From the NCBI GenBank assembly GCA_000004985.1, contig GG738850.1: a stretch of 64,000 nucleotides of DNA. One strand, given 5' to 3'. Position numbers and translations under genes: made by a program. This document shows positions 8,977 through 60,729 of the stretch, one piece after another. The notes under the pieces are model-generated. The model did not search any database. It was not told where the DNA came from and saw only the letters and a list, made by a program, of their open reading frames with translations. The DNA comes from Naegleria gruberi. Taxonomy: Eukaryota. Within the stretch, counting starts at the first letter, position 1; each line of letters starts with the position of its first letter.

Positions 8977-9516
8977 CTCCTATCCTAATCTAATGGAAAC
9001 TTGTCAAAGTTGCTTGGGTCAAAGAGAGAAAAAAAGATTTGCTTCGTTTTTTTTAAATGTCTACTTTCGTTCGGGCTATCTTGCGTCACTGGAAACCAAC
9101 AAACATCATCAAATGATTCGTAGTTGAGCAATATTTGTTTTTGGTAATTTAGGAGGAGTGGAAAGGAAATGGTAATTAACTTCGGTTTGTGTATCGTTTT
9201 CTGATGCAGGCTAGTACCACTCTTCATCGATCTATCACTGCAAGGCTATAAATGATATTTCACCAACGTTGGCAGAACATCAACACATATTAATATCACA
9301 TCTTTTATGAGTGCTGTAATCATCAGTGATGATTTTAAAAGAGTTGTGCGTTGATCTATGAAGGTAAATGAACAATTTTTACTTCCTTAATTTAATTGTG
9401 GTCCTATTATCAATGCAAATGTAACTTAATTGCTTGTAGGGGAATTCCTTGTTATTGTTGTTCAATTTTTATAAAAAATAAAATTTAAGAAAAATTATTT
9501 ATTGAATTTCAAAAAA

Positions 9517-12048
9517 ATGCCAAGCACCGTTGCTTCCATCGCTTCTGCTGGCGGAAAGTCATCAACAAACAATAACAATAATTTTAAAATGGATTTAATG
9601 GATCTTTTGGATAGGTCTCAACAATTGTTACCGGTTGTTGATAATTTTATTCAAAAAGATTTGGAATCTATTCATGAACAATCTAAAAAATTAATTCAAA
9701 AAACAGCAAGAGGAGATGTTCAATCAAAAGGAGATTATTTGCTTGCTGCTCACGGATTTGATGTGGAAAAGTATAGAAGAACAGTTAGTAGATTAGATCT
9801 TAAACAAGCCTTTGAACCTTTGGAACCTATCGGAGAAACAGATATTGAAGGTTATTTAAAACACGAACACGATATGATTCTTCTCTCTTCTGTAGAAGAA
9901 TCTAAAAGACATACTAGTAGTTGTTTTTATAAGAACTTTAATGATCACTTGGAGGATGATTGGAAATCAGCTAAAGAAAGCTTGATGAAAACTTTGAACT
10001 TACACAAAGCTTACCAAAGTCAACAATTTAGACCATCTCTTGGTTTGAATGACTCTGTCAGAAAACCATCTAAGTATTCATCATTCATTGTTTCATCAGG
10101 AAATTCTACACCATTCTCGTCTCCTATTAATCAAAATACAACTCTTATGGCTCCAACTCCAAAGAGAGGTAAGACTACAATGGACGAAAGAATGATTGCC
10201 TATAGCACTGTTGTTTATAATATTAACAAGACTATGAAGGCAGACCAAACTACTAGAATTATTGATCAATTCTCTGAAGCTGCCAAATATATTGAAGAAT
10301 CAGTAGCAAGGAAGAGAGAAGTTACAGAATGTTGGAGGTTATTGAGTTTCATGATCAATGAAAATAATGTTCATGGTGAAATCTCACAAAAGGACCTTTT
10401 ACGAGGAGCTAAAGAATATATGGAAACTTCCTATGTTCAATATATTAAAGATTTATTAGGTATTGAAGGAGAAGTTCCTGATAAATTGAAGCTCATTGAA
10501 CAATTTGTTGCTGAAACAACTAAGAATATTTTACCGGAACACCTCGGAGAATCTATTAATGGAAATTATATTTGGCCAGTATTATTTTATTGTTTAAGAT
10601 GTGGTTTCATAGAAGAAGCTCTTAGATTCACCAATGACCATATTGCCTATTTCTCTCAAGTCATTATTAGTGCTTTGGAAAATAAGAAGGAAGCTCAAAC
10701 TTCTAGCTCTTCAAGCTTGGAACAACAATTGCACGAATTATATAGAAAGATACCACCAAATAGATTATTCCAACATGCTGTATACTTGGTTTTGGGTAGA
10801 TGTGACGTGAAGAAGACCATTCCACAGATTTTCTCTAAAACTGAAGACTTTATGTGGTTGAAACTTTCCATAATAAGAGACGATTCAAATTATACATTAC
10901 AAGATTTACAAAAGATTGTTACATCACATGGACCAAAACATTTCTGTCCAAAGAAGAACTCTCTACTCTACTTTAAGCTTTTGTTATGTACTTTGCAATT
11001 TGAAAGAGCCATTCAATATCTCTGTAGTCGTCAAAGTGAAGGATATCACGTTGAAGCTGTTCACTTTGCATTCACCCTTTACTTCTACGATCTCCTTAAC
11101 GTTTCCGAAGACACTAGTGCTCCTCTTTTGACAGAGAAGGATGGTTGTCAACTTAACTTCCACTTCTTAATCAAAGATTACATAAGAATATTCGCCCATA
11201 CTGACCCATGTATTGCTGCTTCATACTTTTACATTTTCTATAAGAGAGATGAAAAGAAGAAATACTTCAAGTCTATCAAGGAATTGATAATTGAAGGAAA
11301 GGATGTATCTGTACTTTTGGGTCATGTAGATATTGATGGAAAATTGAAGAATGGATTTTTACACTACTTCTTAGATTCTTTTGATTTCCTGGAATTGGCC
11401 GAGTCATGTGCTCAATTATACAATGAAGCAGGTAGATATAGAGATTCAGTAGATATTTATTCAATGGCTTTATTATATAACTTTAGTTTAATGCCAGATC
11501 TTTCTGTTGATACACCAAATCGTTTGAAGAAATATATTCATTCTATTCTTGCCATTATGATTGATGAATTGAGTCAAGTATTGACCGGAGGTGAAAATAG
11601 AGAAGAAGTTAAGCAACTTGCCTCTAAAGTCTTTAAAAACTTTACTGATAACAAGATTCTTCAAATTATTGAACAAAGCAACAAGAAGAACTTTGAAACT
11701 TTCAAGATGCTTCTCAGTCTTACAAAAGTATTTGACAGCTTCTTGAATAGAAATTACGATCGTACTCTTGCAGATTTACAACAACTTCAAATTGTTCCAT
11801 TCAAAAAGCAAGAATTGGAGAGTATTTCATTAAGACAACTCGATAAGAAAATACAGAAGAAACTACCAGATATCTTATTTGTAGCTATGTGTACTCTTTG
11901 CCATTTACATTCTTCATCCAGATCTCACTCTCAAAATGAAATCAAGGATATGGCCTCGAATGTAATGTCATTTGCTGGTCTTAATGAAGAATTGGTTAGC
12001 AGTGATGTAACTACTCAACTCTTGCAATTCGTAAATAGAATGAAGTAA
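9517..12048 (+). CDS. NIC96: Nucleoporin Nup93/Nic96 family
   Basis: Single 844-aa exon; the first ATG is at 9517, and the track start at 9502 is a TTG. The all-alpha protein has an N-terminal coiled coil and the conserved YIWPVLFYCLRCG block, similar to the xWALxYYCxRCG motif I associate with Nup93. Length matches Nic96 (about 840 aa). Identification is from memory of the family, not from a search. Confidence 0.6.
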   Translation: MPSTVASIASAGGKSSTNNNNNFKMDLMDLLDRSQQLLPVVDNFIQKDLESIHEQSKKLIQKTARGDVQSKGDYLLAAHGFDVEKYRRTVSRLDLKQAFEPLEPIGETDIEGYLKHEHDMILLSSVEESKRHTSSCFYKNFNDHLEDDWKSAKESLMKTLNLHKAYQSQQFRPSLGLNDSVRKPSKYSSFIVSSGNSTPFSSPINQNTTLMAPTPKRGKTTMDERMIAYSTVVYNINKTMKADQTTRIIDQFSEAAKYIEESVARKREVTECWRLLSFMINENNVHGEISQKDLLRGAKEYMETSYVQYIKDLLGIEGEVPDKLKLIEQFVAETTKNILPEHLGESINGNYIWPVLFYCLRCGFIEEALRFTNDHIAYFSQVIISALENKKEAQTSSSSSLEQQLHELYRKIPPNRLFQHAVYLVLGRCDVKKTIPQIFSKTEDFMWLKLSIIRDDSNYTLQDLQKIVTSHGPKHFCPKKNSLLYFKLLLCTLQFERAIQYLCSRQSEGYHVEAVHFAFTLYFYDLLNVSEDTSAPLLTEKDGCQLNFHFLIKDYIRIFAHTDPCIAASYFYIFYKRDEKKKYFKSIKELIIEGKDVSVLLGHVDIDGKLKNGFLHYFLDSFDFLELAESCAQLYNEAGRYRDSVDIYSMALLYNFSLMPDLSVDTPNRLKKYIHSILAIMIDELSQVLTGGENREEVKQLASKVFKNFTDNKILQIIEQSNKKNFETFKMLLSLTKVFDSFLNRNYDRTLADLQQLQIVPFKKQELESISLRQLDKKIQKKLPDILFVAMCTLCHLHSSSRSHSQNEIKDMASNVMSFAGLNEELVSSDVTTQLLQFVNRMK

Positions 12049-15013: not shown

Positions 15014-16397
15014 ATGTCATCAGAAACAAAAGTTGTATCGGATACATCAGTGCCACTCTATCAGGTCGATGATACCAATAAATTGCAATGCTCTACACCA
15101 ACATCATCAACTATTCACTTGTTCACCAAGTCAATATTAACATCAAATAAGCAACAAATAATTGGTGATTTAAATAGTGAAAGTACTACTCAACAACATC
15201 CTATTGAACCTGGTAATATTCATTGTAGTAGATTAGCTTCCGATTTAAATCAAGCCTCCACAGTATACTTTATTAACAAATCTAAATTATTCAAAATTAA
15301 ATATGAATTACCTAGTAGTGAAGTAAATGTATGGAAACCAACCAAGAATGCTAAATTACCTTATCCTTTACTTATTTCCGATATTGATGTTACTAAAATT
15401 TATCAATCCACATTAGATGTTAATTTCCAAGGTATTGAAATCGATAAGAATAGAATTGGTTTAACTGATGATATGGGAAATATTTATATTTTAAATAACA
15501 CATTTTCTACTAGTAATAATGAGGAAGATGATGAGGAAACTGATAACAGTTCAAAGAAGAGAAAAGTTGACGAAAAGAGTACTATTCAATGTGTTTACAA
15601 TAATATTGATACAATTAAATATCATGTTAAAGGTCACACTTCACTTAAATTCCATCCAACTAATGAAGCTGTTATTATTAAGAGTACTTTTGAAACTAAG
15701 AACGTTTCTATTTTTGATATCAATAACCAAAAGAGCATATTTTCTGTTAACACAATGCAAAATCCAACCAAATTGCATACCTTTGAAATTCCACAATCAA
15801 ATAATACATTATTAGCAATTGGAGAATATAACAATGTTTCAATTTGGGATTTCAGAACAAACAAACCAGTTAATAGACTGACTAGAACTAGAGGAATTGT
15901 TTATGATATGGATATTACAACCAATGTTAAATGTGGTAAAAATAATTCTAATGCCTTATTGGGTGTTATTGGAAGTGACAGAACTGTCTACATGTATGAC
16001 ACTATGAAATGGTCTCCAATTCACAAGTGGCAAAATTGTTTGAAATATGCTGTAAGTAGACAATCTTTTGAAAGATTCTTTAATCAATGTATTATTATAG
16101 CCATCTTACTTATCCTTCTCAAATATTAATAAGGAATTGTGCTACGTTGCTGGTTTTGATAATAGTGAATTCAAATGTGGTAATTTCGTTGATCAAAAAC
16201 AACAAAGAAAGGGTAGAGGTCATGGTCTCTATGCTGACAATAGATGGATTGGTATGACTAAACCGAATGCGCAAGATACTATCGTTGGTATTAGTATGAA
16301 TGGTTCTTTATATGTTATTGAACATCCACACCGAATGGCTCCAAACTTGAATGATTTAGTTCCTTCTACAGAAGCTCAAGATGTCATGGACGAATAA
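15014..16397 (+). CDS. Hypothetical protein with WD40-like repeats, 2 exons (15014..16051, 16134..16397), about 433 aa
   Basis: An ORF ending artificially inside a GTAAGT intron (16052..16133, 82 nt) continues in frame as ...KWQNCLKYA|ELCYVAGFDNSEFKCGNF.... WD-like strands include NVSIWDFRTNKPV and DRTVYMYDT. Contains the NLS-like DNSSKKRK cassette at 15544-15567. Confidence 0.6.
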
Positions 16398-16865: not shown

Positions 16866-17023
16866 CCAGAATTATGAAGTGTAAGCCAGTAATAATATAT
16901 TGGAGTGAATACACAATATCATCTGTTGAAAGGCAATTTCATTAGACAGGGTGAGCTTGGGGTCATGCAAAGACTTTCCAATTCAGAAGAAAGTTGATAT
17001 TACTATTTATTTGTTTTGGTCTT

Positions 17024-17302
17024 CTATTTAAAATAATACATTGCAACTACCAAGAAAAACATACTAAGTAAGGTTACTTGTAATCTGTTATTTCCATCCA
17101 CAATTGCTTCTAATAACTTATCATTGCTTTCTAATAACTTATCATTGCTTTCTAATAACTTATCATTGCTTTCTAACAACTTGGCATTGCTTTCTAACAA
17201 TTTGGCATTGCCTTCTTCCATAGTTTCTTTAAGGCTTTGGATTTGGGCTCTAACTGAGTGGTTGGATGATCCTCCTGATGAACTGCTTGTGTAGCCTTCC
17301 AT
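17024..17302 (-). CDS. Tail-anchored coiled-coil mini-protein, paralog 1 (92 aa) with 5 KLLESN(A/D) heptads
   Basis: MEGYTSSSSGGSSNHSVRAQIQSLKETMEEGN + (AKLLESN)x5 + ...LLSMFFLVVAMYYFK. The single C-terminal TM segment ends 2 residues before the stop. Paralogous to 18815..19051 and 19416..19631, with conserved 5' and 3' flanks. Confidence 0.6.
   Translation of the reverse strand: MEGYTSSSSGGSSNHSVRAQIQSLKETMEEGNAKLLESNAKLLESNDKLLESNDKLLESNDKLLEAIVDGNNRLQVTLLSMFFLVVAMYYFK
17105..17215 (-). repeat. 21-bp tandem repeat x5 (cttatcattgctttctaataa / cttggcattgctttctaacaa) encoding KLLESN[DA] heptads
   Basis: Direct inspection of 17101-17220; unit length 21 = one heptad. The paralogs carry 2 copies and about 1 copy respectively. 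Confidence 0.8.
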
Positions 17303-18814
17303 TTTTTTAAATTAAATATTATTTAAAAATAGAGAAACGCTCAAAACTTACCTTCTTCTTAAACACAATAAACGATGAGGAGTTGTAATGAAAAACTTAC
17401 ATCTTCCGAAAACATATCACCATTAGCGTGAAATGCATCAAGGTGAGAAGAGGAGCCCATTGTTGCAGAAGTACTATCACTTCCAGTAGATGATGTATTT
17501 TGGTTGTTTTTTGTTGTTTTGTTGGGGAAGGTTGTTCCTCAATAACTCACATTTAAGCAAAAAAATTCCACATCTAATGAAACACATGATGAAGCATGGA
17601 TGTTCCAACGACGCTATTGAGCAACTTTACAAAATCCACATCCAATTAAAACATGTTGTTTGTCTTCCTTACAATCGCTGCGAGATCCCTTAATATAACG
17701 CATCTGGTATCCTCACTGTTTTCACTTATCAAAAACGATTTTACAAGTCATCCACATAATCAAGGCAATACAGCCAACCTTAAAGACTCGGGAGGAATGG
17801 TAGCATAAATAATACTGCTAATACAAAGAAATGCTCAATGATCCTATCATTGTGTAATGACACAAAAATATGAAACGCAAGACTTAAACCCAACATATTT
17901 AGCTATAGCTTCCTTTTAGTGCTTTAGAAACGCGGTTTGGACATTCTCGCTTTCATAGGTTTCTTAAGGACAAAACATTAAGCTGACACCTTGACAAGAC
18001 TTCTCTTTCTTGATGGTATTTTTTTTGGACTTTCTTTTAAATATTAATTTTTACAATAAATATTTGTATCCTTAATATCCTTGACAGGAGCCAAAGGGCA
18101 AATATTTTGAGATGATAAATTGCCATGCCATTAAATATTATTTAACTTCGAGCTTAAGGATTGTAGTTGTTATCTGTGCATAATAGGAGACCGAACACTG
18201 CTATTATTTTGATTTGAAGAATTATTAATATTAAAAAAAACCTCATCAGCTGATTGGAAAAAACCAATATTCTTTCTCATTAATAAGAATACTCACTCAA
18301 AAAATTCAAAGGGGAAACGATGTCATAAGAGTTATTTTTAGTTTTTAAACTTTGTTCATATTAAATACTCGGTGAAAACAAAAGGAAGAAAAGTAAGGCA
18401 AGCTAAATTACTGAATGTGAGTATTACATATCTTAGAGTTTTACCAAGTGTCGTTTTCCAAATTCTACCAAGTTTTACACCCACTCTTCTAAAATTTGAT
18501 TAAAGACTCAGGGAAAACGATTCAAGTGATGGATTATGGTATTTGTGAAACGTACCCTAACTTCCGATAAAAGTGAGCCAATTCTATTGAAGGAAAGATA
18601 AGATACACTTGAGTTTGATTCATGAGAAGCTTTTAAGAAGGTTGATGAGGTAAATGAAACTAGTTTTGTTTCCAACGCACACTATTTTAGCCCACTCACC
18701 AAAAGGTTGGTAATTTCACCGAAACTATGGTTTTCACTACAAACTATTTTTAAGGCAGAAATGTTATCTCTAAAGATTAGAAGAATATCTATATTTATTC
18801 ACTTTTTTGGCCTT

Positions 18815-19051
18815 CTATTTAAAATAATACATTGTAATCACCAAGGAAAACATACTAAGTAAGGCTGCTAGTACTCTGTTATTCCCATCCTTAATTGCTT
18901 CTAATAACTTATCATTGCTTTCTAACAACTTGGCATTGCCTTCTAACAACTTAGTATTGCCTTCTTCCATAGTTTCTTTAAGGCTTTGGATTTGGGCTCT
19001 AACTGAGTGGTTGGATGATCCTCCTGATGAACTGCTTGCACTGTCTACCAT
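18815..19051 (-). CDS. Tail-anchored coiled-coil mini-protein, paralog 2 (78 aa)
   Basis: MVDSASSSSGGSSNHSVRAQIQSLKETMEEGNTKLLEGNAKLLESNDKLLEAIKDGNNRVLAALLSMFSLVITMYYFK. About 85% identical to paralog 1 outside the repeat. Confidence 0.6.
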   Translation of the reverse strand: MVDSASSSSGGSSNHSVRAQIQSLKETMEEGNTKLLEGNAKLLESNDKLLEAIKDGNNRVLAALLSMFSLVITMYYFK

Positions 19052-19415
19052 TTTTTATTAACTATTGTTTAAAAATAGAGAAATGCTCAAAACTAACCTC
19101 GTGGTCTAGTCCACGCACCTTAAATTGTAATGTAGGCTTAATTATTCAGTAATATTAGGTTCATCCATTGAAATATAATATTGAATGCAGTGACAAACCA
19201 TTTGTTTCGCACACATAATTTGCTAATTAACCTGAACAGAAACCCATATCTTAATCTATTATTTGAATACCTGAAATTTGCTCCGTTGTGATAGAAAACA
19301 ATTCAACTGATCCCTTATAGTTTCAATTTTAAATAAATCATTAACGATTTTTTAGTAAGAAAGGTTAGAACAAAAATTGGAAGAATATATTTATTCAGTT
19401 TGTTGGTTTGGCCTT

Positions 19416-19631
19416 CTATTTGAAAAAATACATTGCAACCACCAAGGAAAACATACTAAGGAAGGTTACTTGTAATCTGTTATTTCCTTCCACAATTGCT
19501 TCTAATAACTTATCATTGCTTTCTAGCAACTTAGTATTGCCTTCTTTCATAGTTTCTTTAAGGCTTTGGATTTGGGTTCTAACTGAGTGGTTGGATGATC
19601 TTCTTGATGAACTGCTTGTGTAGCCTTCCAT
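19416..19631 (-). CDS. Tail-anchored coiled-coil mini-protein, paralog 3 (71 aa)
   Basis: MEGYTSSSSRRSSNHSVRTQIQSLKETMKEGNTKLLESNDKLLEAIVEGNNRLQVTFLSMFSLVVAMYFFK. The 3' flank ttggccttctattt(a/g)aaa(t/a)aatacattg is conserved in all three copies. Confidence 0.6.
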   Translation of the reverse strand: MEGYTSSSSRRSSNHSVRTQIQSLKETMKEGNTKLLESNDKLLEAIVEGNNRLQVTFLSMFSLVVAMYFFK

Positions 19632-20039
19632 TTTTTATTTTAAATTGCTGTTCGTGATGTTCAGCTTGTAACTTTACAACTTATTTTGCCAAATACTTAC
19701 AAGTAATATCGGAGTTAGAGAAGCTCAATCTTAACACTGTTTTAATACAATTAGTAATGAAGGAGCCAAATACTTTGAAATGAAACAATTTACAAAACTT
19801 TATATCTCCAATGATATTCCTTAATTGAACCAATTCTTTACAAGTGGATGATGTAAATCAATTTAATTAATACTTTATTGTAAACTAACACCACTAACCT
19901 TTTGTTAAATTTCCTCTCTATTTGGTTCGACAGTATCAACTTTTCGGACCTCAATCACTGACACAAATCGAAACTCTACTGCACACAACTAAATTATCCG
20001 CTCGAATGTTATTGATAGCAAGAAAAAAAAACTTTTCAC

Positions 20040-22055
20040 ATGAAAACCCTATTGTCGTTAGCAGGCAGACTAACAAGTCTCACCATGCTGTTATTCTTAT
20101 ATTGTTTACTTGTTGCTTTAAACAATTCGACAGTAGAAGCATCCATTGATCCACTCTATAAAATGTCAACATTTATTGGTGGTGGCACATCACCCATTAC
20201 AAATGGCATACTCACTACAAATGCTACACTCTCTAGACCTAGTGGTTTAGCTTTATACAGAGGAGAAGTCTATCTAGTAGATTCTGCAAGAATTCTAAAA
20301 GTTAACAATCATAACAATTCCCTTACTATTATTGCTGATGTAAATGCAATGTTGAATAATCCATTTGGTATTTGTTTGAATGATGAAGGTGAAATTTTTA
20401 TTGTTGAGCGAGCTTCACATGTGGTTCGTAAAATTTTGACAAATGGTACAATTATTGTATTTGCTGGAATTGTTAATCAACAAGGTTATTCTGGGGATGG
20501 TGGTTTGGCTGTAAATGCAGCTCTTAATTGGCCATATGATGTAGCATGTGATTTAAAGACTGGTGATGTTTACATTTCAGATAATGAGAATCAACTTATT
20601 CGAAAGGTGTTCAAAAATGGAACTATTACAACAATTGCTGGATCTAGATCTGGAGGCACAACACAAGATGGATCTTTAGCCACCCAAACTGTAATTAATC
20701 GACCAATGATGATGTCTCTGAGTTCGAATGGTAATCTCTACTTTACTTCAAATATTTGTACAATTCGAAAGATCAGTACGAATCAAACTATTTCAACAGT
20801 TGCTGGCGATGGTCAAAATAATAATTATCGTAAAAATGACATTCTAGCTACATTAGTAACTCTGGATGTACCATTTGGAGTCGATGAAGGTCCATTTGGT
20901 GAATTGTACATTGCAGAAACTTACCTTAGTGCTATTCGAAAGGTTTCTCCAAATGGAATAATTTCAAAAATTGCTGGAACTTTCCAATCAGGAGTTTCAC
21001 TGAATACCGTTTTAGATGCTTCCAAAGCTCAAATAACCGATCCATATGATGTCATAGTTGATCCTTCTACTGGAATAGTTTACTTTTCCGAATATTCATC
21101 AGATGTTAAACGAGTTGCTAAATTGGAGCCATACTGTACATTTCCTTTTGAATTAATTAATGGAACATGTACTTACTCATGTTATGGAATTGGATATGAT
21201 GATGCAAGAGTTTGTGCTGGGCATGGAATTTGCCTTTCGAATAATACATGTCAATGTGAATCAGGATGGAAAGGTAATAATCAATGTTCCTTACCTTCAT
21301 GTGAATTATTGAATAATTGTACTGGAAATGGAATGTGTATTTCAAATAATACTTGTGAATGTAATTCCAAATGGAAACATATTGATTGTTCCATTAGTAT
21401 TTGTATTCCATATTTGAATTTAAATAGTCAATTACAATGTTCTCAAGATTTAAATAGTCAATTATTAACATTTAATGAATTACAATCAAATATTAATTTA
21501 AATCCAATTAATTTAAATGAAAATCAACAAATTACTTTTATTTTAGGTAATAATTTTACAAATAATTTGGAAAATTCAAAATATTTTATTAGTTCATCAA
21601 TTTCTCAATCAAATTTACAATTTTATTCAAATGTTACAAATTTAGTTTTACAAAATTCAAATTCTACATTCATTCAACTCCAATTATCAAATTCAATTCA
21701 ATTCCATTTCAAAAATATCGACATTGAACTGTCATCTTTCAATTATACATGTTTAAGATATGACTATTTGTTAAATAGATGGACAAATGAATCAATTTCT
21801 ACAATAATAGATTTATCCGTGAATGAAATTACATGTTCAACTAATTATTTATCTACATCAATTGTTATTCAGAGATATAGAATTATTGAAGTAGTTCCAT
21901 CAAAGTCAAATGTCATCCCAAAGGTATCGAATAGTAATGGTGGAACTGTTGTTAATCCAAAAGAATCTAATAGAGGAATTATTAGTCATGCAATTAGACT
22001 TGTCGGTTCAACAACTTTGACTGTTGTAATAATGATGATATTTAACATTTTGTAA
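20040..22055 (+). CDS. Secreted, C-terminally membrane-anchored protein with NHL repeats followed by EGF-like cysteine modules (teneurin/tenascin-like architecture)
   Basis: Signal peptide MLLFLYCLLVALNNSTVEA. At least five NHL-type repeats (GxxGYSGDGGLAVNAALNWPYDVACD..GDVYISDNENQLIRKV etc.). EGF-like CxxHGICLSNNTCQCESGWKGNNQC / CTGNGMCISNNTCECNSKWKHIDC. Asn-rich stalk with many NxT/S sites. C-terminal hydrophobic LVGSTTLTVVIMMIFNIL. Confidence 0.75.
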   Translation: MKTLLSLAGRLTSLTMLLFLYCLLVALNNSTVEASIDPLYKMSTFIGGGTSPITNGILTTNATLSRPSGLALYRGEVYLVDSARILKVNNHNNSLTIIADVNAMLNNPFGICLNDEGEIFIVERASHVVRKILTNGTIIVFAGIVNQQGYSGDGGLAVNAALNWPYDVACDLKTGDVYISDNENQLIRKVFKNGTITTIAGSRSGGTTQDGSLATQTVINRPMMMSLSSNGNLYFTSNICTIRKISTNQTISTVAGDGQNNNYRKNDILATLVTLDVPFGVDEGPFGELYIAETYLSAIRKVSPNGIISKIAGTFQSGVSLNTVLDASKAQITDPYDVIVDPSTGIVYFSEYSSDVKRVAKLEPYCTFPFELINGTCTYSCYGIGYDDARVCAGHGICLSNNTCQCESGWKGNNQCSLPSCELLNNCTGNGMCISNNTCECNSKWKHIDCSISICIPYLNLNSQLQCSQDLNSQLLTFNELQSNINLNPINLNENQQITFILGNNFTNNLENSKYFISSSISQSNLQFYSNVTNLVLQNSNSTFIQLQLSNSIQFHFKNIDIELSSFNYTCLRYDYLLNRWTNESISTIIDLSVNEITCSTNYLSTSIVIQRYRIIEVVPSKSNVIPKVSNSNGGTVVNPKESNRGIISHAIRLVGSTTLTVVIMMIFNIL

Positions 22056-22214
22056 ATAAATCGAGCAAGGATTGTATAATACCTCGACTTCTTGTGATGA
22101 TCACCTTGAGATTACAACTCACGTTTGGAAACCAAATTGTTACAAAATCACGTTTCAGATTTCATTTAAATTCAACAATAGCATTCTACCTAACATTCAA
22201 AACACAATTAAAAA

Positions 22215-22931
22215 ATGGCCTTTAGAAGTTTCATTTCCACATCCTCTATTACATTATTATCACTTGGAAGTTTGTATACTAGTGTGAATACAAGTGAAGC
22301 CCTAAATGCAACTAGAAAGTATTTAGAGACAACTGAAAAAGTTGCCACAACTCAAAATACCATGTTTGATAAAACAGTCAATGCATTACAAGAGGTTGAA
22401 CAGTTAAAGAACATCCAATCTGAATTGGTGAAAAAACTTAGCATGGAGTCAACTCAACTTCTTTCATTAGAAGAAGAACTTGCTTCATTAAAAACTCAAA
22501 GAATAGTTGATGTTTTAGCCCCTTGTTTGATTGCAGGAGGTACTATGTGGGCAATCTATTTCATTTATAAATATTTCAGCAAGTCAAAGAAATCAAACTC
22601 TGAAGAGGAAAGAAATATGCCAAAAATACTTTTGACATTCTACATTGAGAAGGATCATTTCTCTGATTCATTGGAAGAAAAAATTACAACTCGTTTAGAG
22701 GCAGTTCAACATTATGGATTCCAATTCAAAAGAACATTTTCTTCACAAGGTTCTCACTTTACAATCGTTAGTAGTGAAAAACAAGTTATTGAAGATTCTA
22801 GAATTTTACTAACAATTGGAATGAAGGAAGAAGAAGGTTCAAATGAAGTAGCAGTTAGAAAGGATACTTCTGGAGATGTTCACTTCGATACGAGAGTTGT
22901 GAATAAGTTGATAAGCAAATTGCAAATTTAA
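22215..22931 (+). CDS. Hypothetical single-pass membrane protein with signal peptide and coiled coil (238 aa)
   Basis: Hydrophobic N-terminus, coiled coil QEVEQLKNIQSELVKKLSMESTQLLSLEEELASLKTQ, and a TM segment LAPCLIAGGTMWAIYFIYKYF. Confidence 0.5.
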   Translation: MAFRSFISTSSITLLSLGSLYTSVNTSEALNATRKYLETTEKVATTQNTMFDKTVNALQEVEQLKNIQSELVKKLSMESTQLLSLEEELASLKTQRIVDVLAPCLIAGGTMWAIYFIYKYFSKSKKSNSEEERNMPKILLTFYIEKDHFSDSLEEKITTRLEAVQHYGFQFKRTFSSQGSHFTIVSSEKQVIEDSRILLTIGMKEEEGSNEVAVRKDTSGDVHFDTRVVNKLISKLQI

Positions 22932-23101
22932 CCAAATAACAAATTGTTCAATGATTCAAAATTTTGGAAGTTTCTTGTAATCATTTCGTTATCTTATTGA
23001 ATAGTCTACCACAATGAATAAACCATAAGAGAAAAAGTTACTTCTTTACATTGCTTTTTTTCAAATTGTTTGGAGTGATGTAAAAAGCAAAGTAAAAGAA
23101 T

Positions 23102-23174
23102 TGCTGACGGACGGGATCGAACCGGCGACCAATGGCTTATTAGACCAACGCTCTACCGACTGAGCTACGCCAGC
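23102..23174 (-). tRNA. tRNA-Ile (anticodon AAT)
   Basis: Minus-strand sequence GCTGGCGTAGCTCAGTCGGTAGAGCGTTGGTCTAATAAGCCATTGGTCGCCGGTTCGATCCCGTCCGTCAGCA folds as a cloverleaf: 7-bp acceptor, D-arm GCTC/GAGC, anticodon loop CTAATAA, T-loop TTCGATC. Close to the eukaryotic tRNA-Ile-AAT consensus. Confidence 0.9.
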
Positions 23175-23296
23175 TTAAATTCATTGTGAAATTTCTTAAT
23201 AATTCACTTATACAATAATTAGCTAATCGAAATCGTTCAAGATATTTTCAGAATAAATCTTTAGGAATAATCTTTGGGTTGTGCGGTACTGATACT

Positions 23297-23512
23297 TCAT
23301 TGAACAGAACATTTGGCACATCTTTTAAATTTAGGAAGAGATGTTACAGATTCGTGTGATGATTTTGCAAGTTGTGTTGGTTGTGAGTAATCCATCATGA
23401 GGGTTGTGTCCTCAGCCACTAATTGCTCTGCAGCACCATCTTGGTCTTGAATTGATTGATAGAGTGGAGAATGCATGTTTAGTGTTTGTTTTTTGCTGAT
23501 GGTGTTTTTCAA
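23297..23512 (-). CDS. Doubtful small ORF (71 aa)
   Basis: ORF only; lies between the tRNA-Ile gene and the promoter of the 23555 gene. Confidence 0.15.
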   Translation of the reverse strand: MKNTISKKQTLNMHSPLYQSIQDQDGAAEQLVAEDTTLMMDYSQPTQLAKSSHESVTSLPKFKRCAKCSVQ

Positions 23513-23554
23513 AATTGATTTTCACACAGGTTCAAGTTGAAATAAATATTCGAA

Positions 23555-24541
23555 ATGGAAGGTAATTCGAATAGTGGAGTATTGATTTCCAGAAGAAAGT
23601 TGAAAAAATCCTTCATTAACAAGCTTAAAACTAAAATTAAATTCCATTCAATATTGAAAAAAATGAGTCATTCCTATAGCGAAATTGAAGAACTAGGCAA
23701 TTTGCCATCCGAGCAATACCAAACCGAATCATTCAGAAAATTAATTAATCAGTTTCTTGAATTGTTACAAAAACATCCTAATCTTTCACCTTTTCAGGTA
23801 CCTGCATATTTTGATAAACAATTCTTTTGTTGTTTGTGGTTGGAACTGAATAAAGTACTTACTCCAGAACATCAATACAATGTCTCTCGATCGAGAATGA
23901 AGAGGAAAGACATGATTGAAATGAGTGCTAAACATAGAGAAGTGGTTATGGAAGAAATGAGGAAACTTGTGAAAAAATTGGAATGTGAGGAATATGTATG
24001 TTCTCATACGGTGAAGGAAGTGGAATCGAGTGGAATTCGTGGAATGGTGGATTTTGGAGTGAAGTTTGATGGAAAGATTGTCAAGATTGGAACTGCTTTT
24101 GTAATTAATCCAAATTTTGAGGAGGGAAAATCATTGATTACTGTTATTAGTATGCAAAAGGGATGCTATCCATTCTTGCCCCCTTATGAATTTAAACCCC
24201 ATTCAATTATATCATATCCATGGAACTTGATGAGAAGAAGTACAGAATCACAGAAGGAAATTGAGGAAAAGATGGAAAATTTCTCCAGTGTTATACCAGA
24301 TCAGTCAGATGTTGGATATCTCGATACTTTCATAAAGAATAATTCCAAGAAACGTTCGATTGAAGATTTGGATGGAAGTAAACTGGTAGAAATGAACAGA
24401 AAGCTACTGAAACTGTCAAAGGATTTAAAAACAGAAAATGAAGAGTTGAAAGAATCTAAAAAAGCTCTAGAGAAAGAAAATTTAAAGCAAAAGAATTTAC
24501 TCCTCGCTCTAAGGGCCATGATGGATGCGTCTAGTCTGTAA
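23555..24541 (+). CDS. Hypothetical protein with C-terminal coiled coil (328 aa)
   Basis: Clean ORF with a basic N-terminus and a C-terminal heptad-rich region (NRKLLKLSKDLKTENEELKESKKALEKENLKQKNLLLALRAMM). Confidence 0.5.
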   Translation: MEGNSNSGVLISRRKLKKSFINKLKTKIKFHSILKKMSHSYSEIEELGNLPSEQYQTESFRKLINQFLELLQKHPNLSPFQVPAYFDKQFFCCLWLELNKVLTPEHQYNVSRSRMKRKDMIEMSAKHREVVMEEMRKLVKKLECEEYVCSHTVKEVESSGIRGMVDFGVKFDGKIVKIGTAFVINPNFEEGKSLITVISMQKGCYPFLPPYEFKPHSIISYPWNLMRRSTESQKEIEEKMENFSSVIPDQSDVGYLDTFIKNNSKKRSIEDLDGSKLVEMNRKLLKLSKDLKTENEELKESKKALEKENLKQKNLLLALRAMMDASSL

Positions 24542-24639: not shown

Positions 24640-25131
24640 ATGAATCAAAACCTCTTCAGCTCGGAATTACTTTCCCTCCTCAACAATACAAACTCAACGT
24701 TTAGCGATGAAGTATCTTTGGGTAGTAATTTAAATAATAATACAAAAAATGCAATAAATATTGATGATGAAGAAGAGGAGATCGGATTTCAAGACTCGGC
24801 AGAAAAGGAATTTATTAATAATATTCCACAATTAGGATTATATTTCGAACCAAAGGAAAAGATTTCAAATAATTCATCAATACCCAATGATTTCCTTCAA
24901 TATAATTTTATTAGAGTTCCTCCCATTATTTCGGAAGAGGAAAGGAAATCGTCTCTGTCAATGATTTGTGATGGAGAAATTATTAAAATTTCAAAGCCAC
25001 AAGATGAAAAATCATCGGCAGATATTGAATTGCATAGTATGGAAAGAATGAAAAATAATTTATATGATAATTTTGGAGTGGAAAATAATCAGCGAGCTAG
25101 ACTTGTATCATATCAAGAACAAAAATTGTAA
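24640..25131 (+). CDS. Hypothetical acidic protein (163 aa)
   Basis: ORF with typical codon usage, starting 100 bp after the previous gene; no recognisable domain. Confidence 0.35.
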   Translation: MNQNLFSSELLSLLNNTNSTFSDEVSLGSNLNNNTKNAINIDDEEEEIGFQDSAEKEFINNIPQLGLYFEPKEKISNNSSIPNDFLQYNFIRVPPIISEEERKSSLSMICDGEIIKISKPQDEKSSADIELHSMERMKNNLYDNFGVENNQRARLVSYQEQKL

Positions 25132-25238
25132 AAATAATTGAATGAATTAATTTTGGAATTTACAAAAATATTTCAAGTGTAAAATTTAGAATTTTTAACA
25201 GTTAGCCTTAATATTTATTAAATTTTTTAATTATTTAT

Positions 25239-26582
25239 TTACTTCTTGTTTGGTTGTTGATCTTCATAGACCTTAGTGACGATACCGGCACCAATGGTGA
25301 GACCGCCTTCTCTGACAGCAAAGCTCAAACCTTCAATAATAGCAACGTGGTTAATCAAAGAAACGTTGATCTTCTTCTTGTCACCTGGCATAGCCATACA
25401 CTTTTCACCTTCAGCGATATCCTTACCTTCTTCTGGGTAGATCTTCATCTTACCAGTAACGTCGGCAGTTCTGAAGAAGAATTGTGGTGAGAAACCATCA
25501 ACGAAAGCAGTACGTCTACCACCTTCTTCAGCAGTCAAAACGTAAATGTCAGCATCGAACTTTTGACGTGGCTTCAACAAACCAGGCTTACAGATAACTT
25601 GACCTCTCTTAATTTGCTTCTTATCAATACCTCTCAACAAGATACCCAAATTGTCACCAGCTTGACCTCTATCAACCAACTTGTGGAACATTTCAATACC
25701 AGTAACAGATGACTTGAGAGCAGTTGGAGCAAAACCAACAACTTCAACTTCAGCACCTAATTTGAGTTGACCTTGATCGACCTTACCAGTGGCAACAGTA
25801 CCTCTACCTGAGATAGTGAAAACACCTTCAACAGGCATCAAGAATGGCTTGTTAATATCTCTTTCTGGTTCTGGAATATCCTTATCAACAGCATCCATCA
25901 ACTTTTGAATTGCTTGAGTACCGATTTCAGAGCTGTCTCCTTCCAAACCCTTCAATGCAGAACCTCTGATAATACTAATGTTATCACCATCAAATCCGTA
26001 TTGTTTAACAGTATCTCTAATTTCTTCTTCAACCATTTCAATCATTTCAGCATCAGGAACCAAGTCGACCTTGTTCAAAAAGACGACAATATGCTTGATA
26101 CCGACTTGTTTACACAACAACAAATGTTCTCTAGTTTGGAGCATAGGACCATCGTCAGCGGAAATGACAAGGATGGAACCGTCCATTTGAGCAGCACCAG
26201 TAATCATGTTTTTAATGTAGTCAGCGTGTCCAGGACAGTCAATGTGGGCATAATGTCTAGTAGCGGTAGCATATTCAATGTGTGAAGTAGAAATGGTAAT
26301 ACCTCTTTGTTTTTCTTCTGGAGCTTTATCAATTTGATCGTAGGCCAAAAAGCTGTTAGCCTTTGGATCCAATTCATTCAAATATTTAGTAATAGCAGCA
26401 GTGAGTGTGGTTTTACCGTGGTCAACGTGACCGATAGTACCAATGTTGATGTGTGGCTTGCTTCTGTCGAACTTTTCCTTAGCAGCAAATCTAACTTGGT
26501 TAGTGTTCATCATTTTAGAACCACTCACCAAGACATTGGTCTTGAGTTGTTGTTTGATAATGTTTCTAGATGAAGAGAACAT
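25239..26582 (-). CDS. TUF1: Mitochondrial translation elongation factor Tu (nuclear-encoded), intronless
   Basis: P-loop [22 protein letters not shown] and the full EF-Tu domain II/III are conserved. An N-terminal extension of about 40 aa rich in S/R/K, consistent with a mitochondrial presequence. 447 aa. Confidence 0.97.
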
Positions 26583-27014
26583 GGTTGGAGCAAGAAGAAA
26601 TATTTTTTTTGAGGTCGTTTTTTAAATTTCAATCATTTTGTGTGTTGGTGTGTTGACTTCAAACTTTTGCCGCTCGTTTTTTAAATCGCTAATTGAAAAT
26701 ACTAGTTGTTTGTAAATTGAAGCAAATGGTGTATGTGTCGGAATCATGTTGTGTGTTGTTGGATAACAATGAGTAATTATATTGCTTGATGATATATTAT
26801 TTGGATAACAAATTATTTTTCTATTGGGTTTTTTTGGAGGAGTTTTATGTTTCTCCTTTTTGGGAACCTCTAAGTCTTAAGACTTAAACAATCCAAAAAA
26901 ATCATTGTTGAATAGTCATCCTATGAGTTAAATAATAACTTATTCTGAATGGCCACCTTCCTTACTTTACACAATTTCTTTGCACAGACAGTTAACTGTT
27001 AAAACAAAACAATT

Positions 27015-43240: not shown

Positions 43241-44311
43241 TCAATTCAAATTGCAACCAATTGCCTTGTTTGTTTGCACCTTAATTGAATGTAAAATTGG
43301 AGTTAATTTGGCAGTTAACTTGGATGGAACCTTTCCATTGGCCTTTTTTGATTCATCCATCAATAATACCAAGTCAACTGGAATTGCAACTATTGGAATG
43401 GCACTTTTAATCATCAATCCTGTTAAACTCATAATACCTGTGTGGCCATTAGTCAATCCATCAGATTTATCCAAATCTTGATGCTTGTGGCCTGTCAGAG
43501 ATTCAACAAATTGAAGAACGTTGACATTTCTATTACCAATTTTCATAACTCTACTATCAATGTATGGATCAGTCAACCTTTGTTCATAAATCTTTCTAAT
43601 CATTGCATTTACTGCTTGAGTATCCCTTTGTAAGAGTTCTTGAATGGACTTGGCTGATTTCTTGGCATGTTTCCATTCAGCAATTGATGCAGCAACTGTT
43701 GCTGTTGTTCCCACACCAACACAACCAATACCAGCACCTGAGGCAATTAATGAAACACCAAAAGTGAAAGGAGCAGCTACGATACCACCAAGAATCAAGG
43801 AAGCTCCAACAATATTGGTTTTTGTACCTTTCACTTTGGTCTTTGCTGTACTTTGTTGTTTCTTTTCTAATGATTGGATTAAATTGTCCAGCATTTTAAT
43901 GATTTCCAATCGTTGGACAAGCCACTCATTTGCAGATTGTTCAATGACAGCAAATCCACAATTTGGATTATCAAAATTGGTACTTTCAAATGTTGGGGTT
44001 TGAGGAAGAATTACATTGGTCTGGAAATTTGTTTGTTGACCACCTTTTTCATAGCTACTATTACTGGTTGTGGATTGAATTGGTTTAAAGTTATTGGTTA
44101 GTTGTAATGGTTGGGGAGTTATTGGTTGTTGTACAAATTGAGGATTAGAAGTGATAACTGGAAAATATTGAGCGTTTGGTTGTGGATACATGTATTGAGG
44201 AGGATTAGGTGGGTAAAGTTGATATTCTGGTGGTTGATAATTCACTCCAGGTTCTGTAATGTTTGGTTGAGTAGAGAAATGTGGATATTGAGGAGAAACT
44301 TGTTGATGCAT
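43241..44311 (-). CDS. Hypothetical membrane protein: P/Q/Y-rich N-terminus with a PPxY motif, central glycine-zipper hydrophobic hairpin, helical C-terminal domain (356 aa)
   Basis: N-terminus HQQVSPQYPHFSTQP...YQLYPPNPPQYMYPQP contains PPQY. The core IVGASLILGGIVAAPFTFGVSLIASGAGIGCVGVGTTATVAASIA is a GxxxG-rich hairpin. Confidence 0.55.
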   Translation of the reverse strand: MHQQVSPQYPHFSTQPNITEPGVNYQPPEYQLYPPNPPQYMYPQPNAQYFPVITSNPQFVQQPITPQPLQLTNNFKPIQSTTSNSSYEKGGQQTNFQTNVILPQTPTFESTNFDNPNCGFAVIEQSANEWLVQRLEIIKMLDNLIQSLEKKQQSTAKTKVKGTKTNIVGASLILGGIVAAPFTFGVSLIASGAGIGCVGVGTTATVAASIAEWKHAKKSAKSIQELLQRDTQAVNAMIRKIYEQRLTDPYIDSRVMKIGNRNVNVLQFVESLTGHKHQDLDKSDGLTNGHTGIMSLTGLMIKSAIPIVAIPVDLVLLMDESKKANGKVPSKLTAKLTPILHSIKVQTNKAIGCNLN

Positions 44312-59040: not shown

Positions 59041-60729
59041 ATGGGAACCCCAGATTGGGGTAATGATTTAACACTCAACTATGACACTTGCAATATTATG
59101 TCACTCACACAAAAACAATCAAAAAAAATGAGTAAACGAAATAGACAAGATTTGGAAAATCAATTAATTAATTATTCGGAGGAAAATAATATGGACGAGA
59201 AAGCAAAAAAGGTTTCAATGCAACGACAAGAAATATTTTCAGATGATGTTTGTTTTGAAATAATTTGCATGCTCGATGATTCGTGGTTTATTTTGAATAA
59301 TTGTTCATTGATTTCAAAACAATTCTTTAATGTGATCAAGGAACGTTCAAAACTTGTTATTCAATTTAATCAAAAATTTACAGAAACAAGAATTGAATTA
59401 TTCATGAAAAGTCAATTTATGAATAGTATTGTTCATCTTAAATTTTATAGAAGCTCGCTTGACTCTATAGAACAAGTCAAATTAATAAGTGAAATGAAAC
59501 AATTAAAATTACTTGATATTCGTGGAATTCAAATAGGAGATGAAGGAGCCAAATTTATAAGTGAAATGAAACAATTGAGATCACTTAGTATTTATAACAA
59601 TCAAATTGGTGTAGCAGGAGTCAAATCAATAAGTGAAATGAAACAATTAACATCACTTGCAATTTGTAACAATCGAATTGGTGATGAAGGAGTCAAATTT
59701 ATAAGTGAAATGAAACAATTAACGTCACTTACTATATGTTACAATCAAATTGGTGTTGAAGGAGTAAAATCCATAATTGAAATGAACCAATTAAAATCAC
59801 TTAATATATCTTACAATGAAATTGGAGATGAAGGCGCGAAATCAATATGTGAAATGAAACAATTAACATCACTTAATATATGTGACAATCGAATTGGTGT
59901 AGAAGGAATCAAATCAATATGTGAAATGAAACAATTAACATTACTTAATATATCTAAGAATCAAATTGGTGATGAAGGAGTCAAATTCATAATTGAAATG
60001 AAGCAATTAACGTCACTTGACATATGTTACAATCGAATTGGTGATGAAGGAGCCAAATCCATAAGTGAAATGAAACAATTGAAATCACTTGATATTTATA
60101 ATAATCAAATTAGTGATGAAGGAGTCAAATTTATAAGTGAAATGAAACAATTAACATCACTTGATATTAGTGCAAATGAAATTGGTGTAGAAGGAACCAA
60201 ATCAATATGTGAAATGAAACAATTAACATTACTTAATATATCTAAGAATCAAATTGGTGATGAAGGAGTCAAATTCATAATTGAAATGAAGCAATTAACG
60301 TCACTTGACATATGTTACAATCGAATTGGTGATGAAGGAGCCAAATCCATAAGTGAAATGAAACAATTGAAATCACTTGATATTTATAATAATCAAATTA
60401 GTGATGAAGGAGTCAAATTTATAAGTGAAATGAAACAATTAACATCACTTGATATTAGTGCAAATGAAATTGGCGTTGAAGGAGTCAAATCAATAAGTGA
60501 AATGAAACAATTAACATCACTTAATATTAATAACAATGAAATTGGTGATGAAGGAGCCAAATTTATAAGTGAAATGAAACAATTAACATCACTTAATATA
60601 TGTTACAATCGAATTGGTGTTGAAGGAGTCAAATTAATAGGTGAAATGAAACAATTGAAATCACTTAATATTAATTACCAAAAGACGAAATCTAAGGATT
60701 TGGTATGGATTACAAATGAGACTGCTTAA
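59041..60729 (+). CDS. Leucine-rich-repeat protein of the ribonuclease-inhibitor (RNI/NLR-type) class, about 17 tandem 24-residue repeats (562 aa)
   Basis: Repeat consensus (K/S)ISEMKQLTSL(N/D)I(S/C/Y)xNxIGDEGVKF, i.e. LxxLxLxxNxIGxxGxxxL. The 120-aa N-terminal region is non-repetitive, and there is no NACHT/NB-ARC domain in this ORF. Confidence 0.8.
   Translation: MGTPDWGNDLTLNYDTCNIMSLTQKQSKKMSKRNRQDLENQLINYSEENNMDEKAKKVSMQRQEIFSDDVCFEIICMLDDSWFILNNCSLISKQFFNVIKERSKLVIQFNQKFTETRIELFMKSQFMNSIVHLKFYRSSLDSIEQVKLISEMKQLKLLDIRGIQIGDEGAKFISEMKQLRSLSIYNNQIGVAGVKSISEMKQLTSLAICNNRIGDEGVKFISEMKQLTSLTICYNQIGVEGVKSIIEMNQLKSLNISYNEIGDEGAKSICEMKQLTSLNICDNRIGVEGIKSICEMKQLTLLNISKNQIGDEGVKFIIEMKQLTSLDICYNRIGDEGAKSISEMKQLKSLDIYNNQISDEGVKFISEMKQLTSLDISANEIGVEGTKSICEMKQLTLLNISKNQIGDEGVKFIIEMKQLTSLDICYNRIGDEGAKSISEMKQLKSLDIYNNQISDEGVKFISEMKQLTSLDISANEIGVEGVKSISEMKQLTSLNINNNEIGDEGAKFISEMKQLTSLNICYNRIGVEGVKLIGEMKQLKSLNINYQKTKSKDLVWITNETA
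59476..60690 (+). repeat. 72-bp-period coding tandem repeat (about 17 units) including a near-perfect 288-bp (4-unit) tandem duplication at about 59905-60192 / 60193-60480
   Basis: Two 288-nt blocks, both starting aaatcaatatgtgaaatgaaacaattaacattacttaatatatctaagaatcaaattggtgatgaaggagtcaaattcataattg..., occur at an offset of exactly 288 nt. They differ at only 2-3 positions (gaatc vs gaacc; ggtgtag vs ggcgttg). Confidence 0.8.

Follow-up and report, generated by a model that had tools for sequence, protein, structure and literature searches.

Intragenic coding minisatellites are known from genes such as the yeast cell-wall genes FLO1 and HPF1 (PMC3537727, PMC7263189). There the number of units changes through slippage or unequal recombination, a route that would equally serve the locus described below. 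In a different setting, the addition of 14 or 21 residues (2 or 3 heptads) to Lpp widens the periplasm of E. coli by 3-4 nm (PMC5736177). PARCEL repeats encode a 25-residue motif in DNA with dyad symmetry (PMC2996958), and rules for the targeting of tail-anchored proteins have been formulated (PMC5450235).

Here we describe three small paralogous ORFs of Naegleria gruberi, designated p1, p2 and p3, which differ in the number of 21-bp units that they carry. They lie in a 64-kb window, by which we mean the whole stretch of DNA that was analysed. Our preferred reading, which we hold to be probable without being assured, is that p1-p3 encode tail-anchored stalk proteins of an orphan family and carry an ordinary coding minisatellite that stays in frame.

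Genomic setting of the three paralogs

The window is N. gruberi nuclear DNA with a G+C content of 33%. The ORF at 9502-12048 is 100% identical to N. gruberi nucleoporin nup93, and the ORF at 25239-26582 corresponds to XP_002681524, the mitochondrial EF-Tu of strain NEG-M. Other genes of the window encode RabGAP/RhoGEF, RRM, Med12, RPS3A, Ras-family, LRR and Kelch proteins. The three paralogs lie between nup93 and EF-Tu, and all of their features given below are on the minus strand. The p1 gene (17024-17302) is a single-exon ORF of 92 aa running from ATG to TAG, with five heptads. The p2 paralog (18815-19051) encodes 78 aa with three heptads (NT, NA, ND), and p3 (19416-19631) encodes 71 aa with two heptads, an NT/NA hybrid followed by ND. 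These models draw on the ORF list, alignment and codon usage and, for p1, also on an AF2 prediction. No fourth copy was found in the 64-kb window, and no terminal inverted or long direct repeats, which are transposon signatures, flank the copies.

The neighbouring sequences offered some observations of their own. The 1.5-kb spacer between p1 and p2 (17303-18814) has no codon-usage signal and no ORF longer than 67 aa, matches nothing in Rfam and contains no degenerate fourth paralog, in a region that is otherwise gene-dense. Across 14-22 kb, Rfam gave no non-coding RNA. The WD40 gene at 15014-16397 has a short intron at 16050-16131 (GTAAGT...TAATAAG), across which orthologues from N. lovaniensis and from N. 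fowleri align. On the other side of the paralogs, p3 and an NHL-EGF gene (start 20040) have a common divergent intergenic region of 408 nt. The latter is an uninterrupted ORF of 671 aa on the plus strand (20040-22055) that combines NHL and EGF domains of the Teneurin type with a hydrophobic segment at the C-terminus. Since its exact product is not in the gene collection, the public model, if there is one, differs. A further ORF on the plus strand (22215-22931, 238 aa) has no Pfam match; its N-terminus carries a hydrophobic stretch, and it also contains a segment resembling a coiled coil and a membrane segment in its interior, VLAPCLIAGGTMWAIYFIYKYF. By these features it is a putative further uncharacterised membrane/coiled-coil protein of the island that holds p1-p3.

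Two more distant ORFs are also of note. The ORF at 43241-44311 (minus strand, 356 aa) matches Pfam Apolipoprotein L above the gathering score (32.9 vs 25.9 bits, E=6e-8), and this candidate ApoL-like pore-forming domain may be worth attention, coming as it does from a heterolobosean amoeba. Within the ORF at 59041-60729, positions 59475-60672 (plus strand) hold LRR_6 (RNI-type) repeats of 72 nt (24 aa) arranged in a 288-nt super-repeat (4.1 copies, 89% matches). The super-repeat therefore points to a recent block duplication in this ORF, with four LRRs per block.

A 21-bp coding repeat differs in number among the paralogs

The initial annotation placed a 21-bp coding repeat at 17105-17215. TRF recovered it at 17103-17216 as an array of period 21 (5.5 copies, 93% matches, score 165), in frame in p1, and only the LRR gene contains a higher-scoring tandem repeat in the 64-kb window. 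Read on the minus strand, the array encodes NAKLLES-NAKLLES-NDKLLES-NDKLLES-NDKLLEA, which amounts to five KLLE heptads with the unit order B' B C C C' (NA, NA, ND, ND, ND). The unit had been called perfect or near-perfect in all five copies. Five heptads are indeed present, but the 21-mer cttatcattgctttctaataa occurs exactly only twice (17117 and 17138); it has one mismatch at 17159 and three at 17180, and the fifth unit has diverged further from it than the other four. The 21-bp unit contains a trivial 4+4 palindrome, ATAAGTTAT. Membership in the PARCEL repeats was considered and rejected on the grounds of this palindrome, the 7-residue (21-bp) unit and the lack of a corresponding Pfam match.

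When the same counting rule is applied to all three genes, the heptad counts of p1, p2 and p3 are 5, 3 and 2. The earlier figures of 2 units for the second paralog and 1-2 for the third have to be corrected accordingly. The p2 array (18894-18965; TRF 3.5 copies, 84% matches) reads NTKLLEG NAKLLES NDKLLEA, and the p3 array (19495-19545; TRF 2.5 copies) reads NTKLLES NDKLLEA. At 78 and 71 aa, the p2 and p3 products are shorter than the 92-aa product of p1 by exactly 14 and 21 residues. All alignment gaps among p1-p3 are multiples of 21 nt, as expected from the original proposal that length changes in frame by exact heptads.

Coding potential and gene structure

Several signals accompany the ORFs. 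AATAAA, a putative poly(A) signal, is located 12 nt past the stop codon of p1 (17006-17011), 15 nt past that of p2 (18794-18799) and 20 nt past that of p3 (19390-19395). Upstream, p1 (17303-17353) and p2 (19052-19099) have in common an element of about 50 nt that ends in AAAAAATGG and is presumed to be a 5'UTR or core promoter. The AAAAAATGG start context is found at all three paralogs and also at well-supported genes of the window (15014, 27413, 47302 and 48461). Identity between the copies is about 90% over the ORF, 88% over the roughly 50 nt upstream (p1/p2) and about 75% over some 70 nt downstream; outside the ORF and these short flanks the copies do not align. Judged from the alignment, the conserved or homogenised portion appears to be roughly one transcription unit.

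Codon-usage log-odds were calculated with 17 long ORFs of the window as the training set. The minus-frame scores were 0.24 for p1, 0.18 for p2 and 0.06 for p3, the last being marginal. The references are 0.285±0.124 for coding chunks of 70 codons, -0.75±0.39 for off-frame chunks and a maximum of 0.087 in the 1.5-kb stretch that separates p1 from p2. In each of the three copies the proposed frame scores higher than the other five. An antisense frame (plus strand) is also open over the repeat in all three, at 17124-17294, 18915-19061 and 19408-19623; it reads LSNNLSLLSNN... and reaches 71 codons in p3. Its codon scores are lower, from -0.05 to -0.14, and the composition of the repeat probably accounts for its being open.

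These results have to be weighed against the view that there are no genes here, and that a non-coding segment with a 21-bp minisatellite was duplicated three times, leaving ORFs open by chance in young copies. The low score of p3 and the open antisense frame agree with this view, and so does the fact that p1-p3 are unannotated and have no homologues in the databases searched. The dN/dS values between paralogs (0.42, 0.64 and 1.28) come from just 13-21 differences per pair, counts too small to place them clearly below 1 or to distinguish them from neutrality. Moreover, slippage steps of 21 nt keep the frame automatically, and the ORFs of young duplicates with 21-nt indels remain in frame even in the absence of selection. 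On the other side, the codon usage of p1 and p2 falls inside the coding range with the proposed frame best throughout, the positions of ATG and TAG are common to the three copies together with the start context and the downstream AATAAA, and the ORF is far better conserved than its flanks. All three copies also keep the terminal 18-residue hydrophobic segment and its Lys, with mostly conservative changes, and no other such ORFs exist in the six frames of the 64 kb. We therefore regard the non-coding interpretation as doubtful. That p1-p3 are real protein-coding genes is likely, because of the codon usage, the AAAAAATGG context, the AATAAA past the stop codon and the confinement of similarity to the ORF and short flanks.

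If the genes are real, their structure has to be settled as well. GT[A/T]AGT motifs (GTAAGT or GTTAGT) occur 50-70 nt upstream of all three ORFs, and the sequence ATGG[A/T]AG at all three starts puts an AG right after each ATG. N. gruberi introns open with the motif GTAAGT, an example being the intron of the WD40 gene at about 16050-16131. The ORFs might on these grounds be alternative 3'-terminal exons of a larger spliced gene, a model to which we give almost no weight. In p1 no AG is available between the ATG and the GTAAGT-like motif upstream of it, and in the one testable model, a p1 splice to the AG after the ATG, the frame is shifted and a stop codon follows soon after. The 408 nt between p3 and the divergent NHL-EGF gene contain no ATG-initiated upstream exon, and the A-rich ATG context agrees with that of genuine starts in the window. 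Models with an upstream exon or alternative terminal exons were rejected on the grounds of frame and the absence of an ATG exon, and a single-exon gene model is the most economical for p1-p3.

Architecture of the predicted proteins

Each product starts with about 12 Ser-rich residues; a single long helix built of N-x-K-L-L-E-S heptads follows, and the chain closes with a membrane segment of 18 residues and one Lys. In p1 the membrane segment LQVTLLSMFFLVVAMYYF, identified by hydropathy, covers residues 74-91 (17030-17083), has a GRAVY of 1.9 and is followed by Lys and the stop codon. The initial annotation regarded the anchor as constant. Its length and position are the same in all three products and it is hydrophobic in each (GRAVY 1.87-2.01), but it has taken on several substitutions, few in all and conservative in kind.

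The position of this segment is that of a tail anchor. In each of the three products a single residue separates its end from the stop codon, the limit for the class being about 30 residues from the C-terminus. The N-terminal part is Ser-rich and charged and the hydropathy outside the tail is below the filter threshold, so no signal peptide is indicated. The filter covered all six frames of the 64 kb, took the ORFs of 45-160 aa that begin with ATG and selected those in which the last 22 residues are hydrophobic and the rest is hydrophilic and charged; p1, p2 and p3 were the only ORFs that passed. Under the published targeting rules (PMC5450235), a GRAVY of about 1.9 and a one-Lys tail make the ER and the mitochondrial outer membrane indistinguishable, and the predicted destination of the anchor is ambiguous between the two.

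A monomer prediction by AF2 on the three-sequence alignment gave a single continuous helix from residue 13 to residue 91 (mean pLDDT 86). The helical cytosolic part comprises about 61 residues in p1, 47 in p2 and 40 in p3. If fully helical, the stalks would reach about 9.2 nm in p1, 7.0 nm in p2 and 6.0 nm in p3, or about 1 nm per heptad. The earlier description of a coiled coil is borne out as far as the helix and the 7-residue periodicity are concerned, both being clear from the AF2 model and the exact heptad repeats. It fails in the pattern of the core, where hydrophobic residues at both a and d would be expected. The two Leu of the heptad are adjacent, and in every register one core position of each repeated heptad is Asn or Ser. 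For this reason we use the term amphipathic heptad helix. Oligomerisation of the helices is something that we infer.

A heptad helix placed directly before a C-terminal membrane segment is also the layout of SNAREs, and Pfam Synaptobrevin gave a weak alignment to residues 15-87 of p1 (E=0.37, 11.1 bits). This raises the question of whether p1-p3 could be highly divergent small SNARE-like tail-anchored fusion proteins of the synaptobrevin/Bet1 type. The score is well short of the gathering cut-off of 26.4 bits, and p2 and p3 gave no match. The SNARE motif has about 53 residues in 16 layers. With about 47 and 40 helical residues before the membrane segment, p2 and p3 have too few to accommodate it, and a variable number of heptads is incompatible with a fixed 16-layer bundle. 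Nor is there a conserved central Arg or Gln layer. The assignment to SNAREs (Synaptobrevin PF00957 and relatives) is very improbable and was rejected for the sub-threshold Pfam score, the short motif in p2 and p3 and the variable length.

Homologue searches and comparison with related species

The three ORFs are missing from the annotated N. gruberi proteome, and the gene collection holds no record of the exact products of p1, p2 or p3. A word-indexed phmmer search of 5.8 billion proteins with p1 returned just two low-complexity matches (E>=0.8). A profile of p1-p3 run against 1.84 billion representatives gave four partial matches, which cover the repeat only. The JGI metagenomes yielded nothing, and the PDB yielded designed helical proteins only. 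All Pfam matches of p1 were under the cut-off (DUF7900, Pup, XRCC4_CC and Synaptobrevin).

For comparison at the level of the locus we took, in N. lovaniensis and in N. fowleri, the 10 kb on either side of Nup93 and of mitochondrial EF-Tu, together with a Willaertia magna locus and a short Logan Naegleria contig. In these loci tblastn found no ORF resembling p1-p3 and no homologue of the NHL-EGF gene or of the ORFs at 22215 and 23555. The block of Nup93, RRM and small genes is conserved. In N. gruberi the WD40 gene comes before p1; its counterpart in N. fowleri and N. lovaniensis is inverted and lies five genes further on. A distance of 5.6 kb separates mitochondrial EF-Tu from p3 in N. gruberi, and in the other two species EF-Tu shares a contig with Nup93 at a distance of about 130-140 kb. 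The WD40 and EF-Tu anchors that bracket 17024-24541 in N. gruberi are about 130-140 kb apart on one contig in these two species. The N. gruberi ORFs that lie in between have no match close to either of the anchors, so the segment 17024-24541, from p1 to the ORF at 23555, is by the evidence of the loci around the anchors a putative rearranged, lineage-specific island.

A 1,687-bp metagenome contig in ENA ERZ929261 (run ERR1078381) is 99.6% identical to the EF-Tu locus at 25100-26784, with 2 mismatches and 3 gaps. The sample of ERR1078381 therefore contains a very close relative of N. gruberi.

History and dynamics of the repeat

The units fall into three types. Unit A is AAT ACT AAG TTG TTA GAA GGC, unit B is AAT GCC AAG TTG TTA GAA AGC, and unit C is AAT GAT AAG TTA TTA GAA AGC. 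Their order is B' B C C C' in p1, A B C' in p2 and (A/B) C' in p3. The first unit of p3 has an A-type start and a B-type end. It would be best explained as a hybrid of the p2 units A and B that arose through a one-unit deletion, by slippage or unequal exchange with A misaligned on B.

The perfectly 21-periodic tract in p1 is 69 nt long (17108-17176, ND units), as compared with 33 nt in p2 and 27 nt in p3. The paralogs themselves diverge at about 10% of sites (dS 0.10-0.14). A 69-nt perfect tract set against a divergence of about 10% dates the expansion of C units in p1, that is, the two extra ND units, after the gene duplications. The substitutions private to p2 are clustered at codons 2-5, 68-77 and 86-87, and in a comparison of three sequences such clusters hint at conversion tracts or locally relaxed constraint.

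How labile is the array? The initial annotation spoke of contingency-like behaviour, which would make p1 a hypermutable locus where ongoing slippage keeps stalk length polymorphic in populations and supplies pre-adaptive variation. The 69-nt tract of three identical or near-identical units is a plausible slippage substrate younger than the paralog split, and at least about four unit-number events separate three closely related paralogs. These events are nevertheless few in comparison with the 13-21 point differences per pair, and this ratio appears to indicate ordinary minisatellite instability and no hypermutability. Each array is short, the 21-bp units numbering 5, 3 and 2. Because their units are non-identical, differing at 3-5 of 21 positions, and their perfect periodicity extends over just 33 and 27 nt, the p2 and p3 arrays make poor slippage substrates; the p1 tract is the sole good one. 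The instability of bacterial contingency tracts is orders of magnitude above that implied for p1-p3. Furthermore, a tandem tract does lie inside the gene, as in a contingency locus, but expression switching by frameshift or promoter spacing has no counterpart here. The unit length is a multiple of 3 and always in frame, so the repeat cannot turn the gene on or off. We consider the contingency reading unlikely. As an account of how the paralogs came to differ in the past, slippage is a reasonable one.

The array has instead the properties of a coding minisatellite (VNTR), with in-frame tandem units of high identity (93% over 5.5 copies, with the 69-nt perfect tract). The differences in repeat number (5/3/2) are observed among paralogs only, and the one pangenome found for the genus includes N. 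gruberi as one strain (PMC9928731). We read the repeat as a coding minisatellite of the ordinary, in-frame kind and not as a contingency switch.

Discussion

The preferred reading of p1-p3 as an orphan family of tail-anchored stalk proteins can be put as a sequence of steps. Three tandem, same-strand, single-exon small genes, without public annotation and without a detectable homologue, would encode proteins with the architecture of a tail-anchored membrane protein and a cytosolic helical stalk. Units of 21 bp have been gained and lost in frame between the paralogs, which would have come about via replication slippage or via unequal exchange or conversion between units and paralogs, and the two extra ND units of p1 would have arisen after the gene duplications. 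The proteins would be made and inserted post-translationally into an organelle membrane, where they may act as weakly self-associating stalks or spacers, and the number of heptads would set how far the Ser-rich N-terminus projects from the membrane.

A bolder extension is that p1-p3 are graded molecular rulers of about 6, 7 and 9 nm that impose quantised spacings at an organelle surface, for example at membrane contacts or cytoskeleton attachments, with the p1 tract generating new lengths in natural N. gruberi populations. If true, this would be a eukaryotic in-frame counterpart of the contingency locus, one that acts on intracellular structure. We think it quite improbable.

If the genes are real, the gene set of N. 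gruberi gains a family of very small tail-anchored proteins that is unannotated and lineage-restricted. They would also offer a clean natural series (+7, +14 and +21 residues) in which to see whether the length of a stalk has consequences at a eukaryotic membrane, as it has for bacterial Lpp. Genes of less than 100 aa such as p1-p3 are evidently missed by standard eukaryotic annotation. As a mutational phenomenon, in-frame minisatellite change among paralogs is well known and unsurprising.

The near-same consensus x-K-L-L/W-E-S-x recurs in two prokaryotic proteins, P0008 with KLWESNN repeats and P0011 with GKLLESQ/GKTLESH. The match covers just the repeat (profile positions about 18-58), there is no C-terminal membrane segment, and the architecture is otherwise different. 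The similarity is therefore one of convergent low complexity and not of homology.

With the tail-anchored proteins, p1-p3 have in common that their single hydrophobic segment sits at the extreme C-terminus, that the basic tail is very short, that there is no signal peptide and that the remainder is hydrophilic. Tail-anchored proteins are a topological class and no homologous family, and p1-p3 are placed among them as candidates from their sequences. The likeness to the coding minisatellites of FLO1 and HPF1 consists in high-identity units that stand in frame and vary in number among related gene copies while the reading frame is unchanged. The unit of p1-p3, in contrast, is a single helix heptad in a putative tail-anchored protein of about 70-90 aa, and its arrays are very short (2-5 units), with variation known among paralogs only. 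The closest functional parallel is the series of Lpp, Lpp+14 and Lpp+21 (PMC5736177, PMC8824477), in which a small membrane-anchored helical stalk likewise becomes a longer spacer by a few nm through added heptads; the length differences among p1, p2 and p3 are exactly 7, 14 and 21 residues. Lpp, however, is a bacterial, lipid-anchored protein that has been proven to form a trimeric coiled coil and is known to act as a tether, and its variants of different length were engineered. There is no homology between Lpp and p1-p3, and the analogy is one of principle only.
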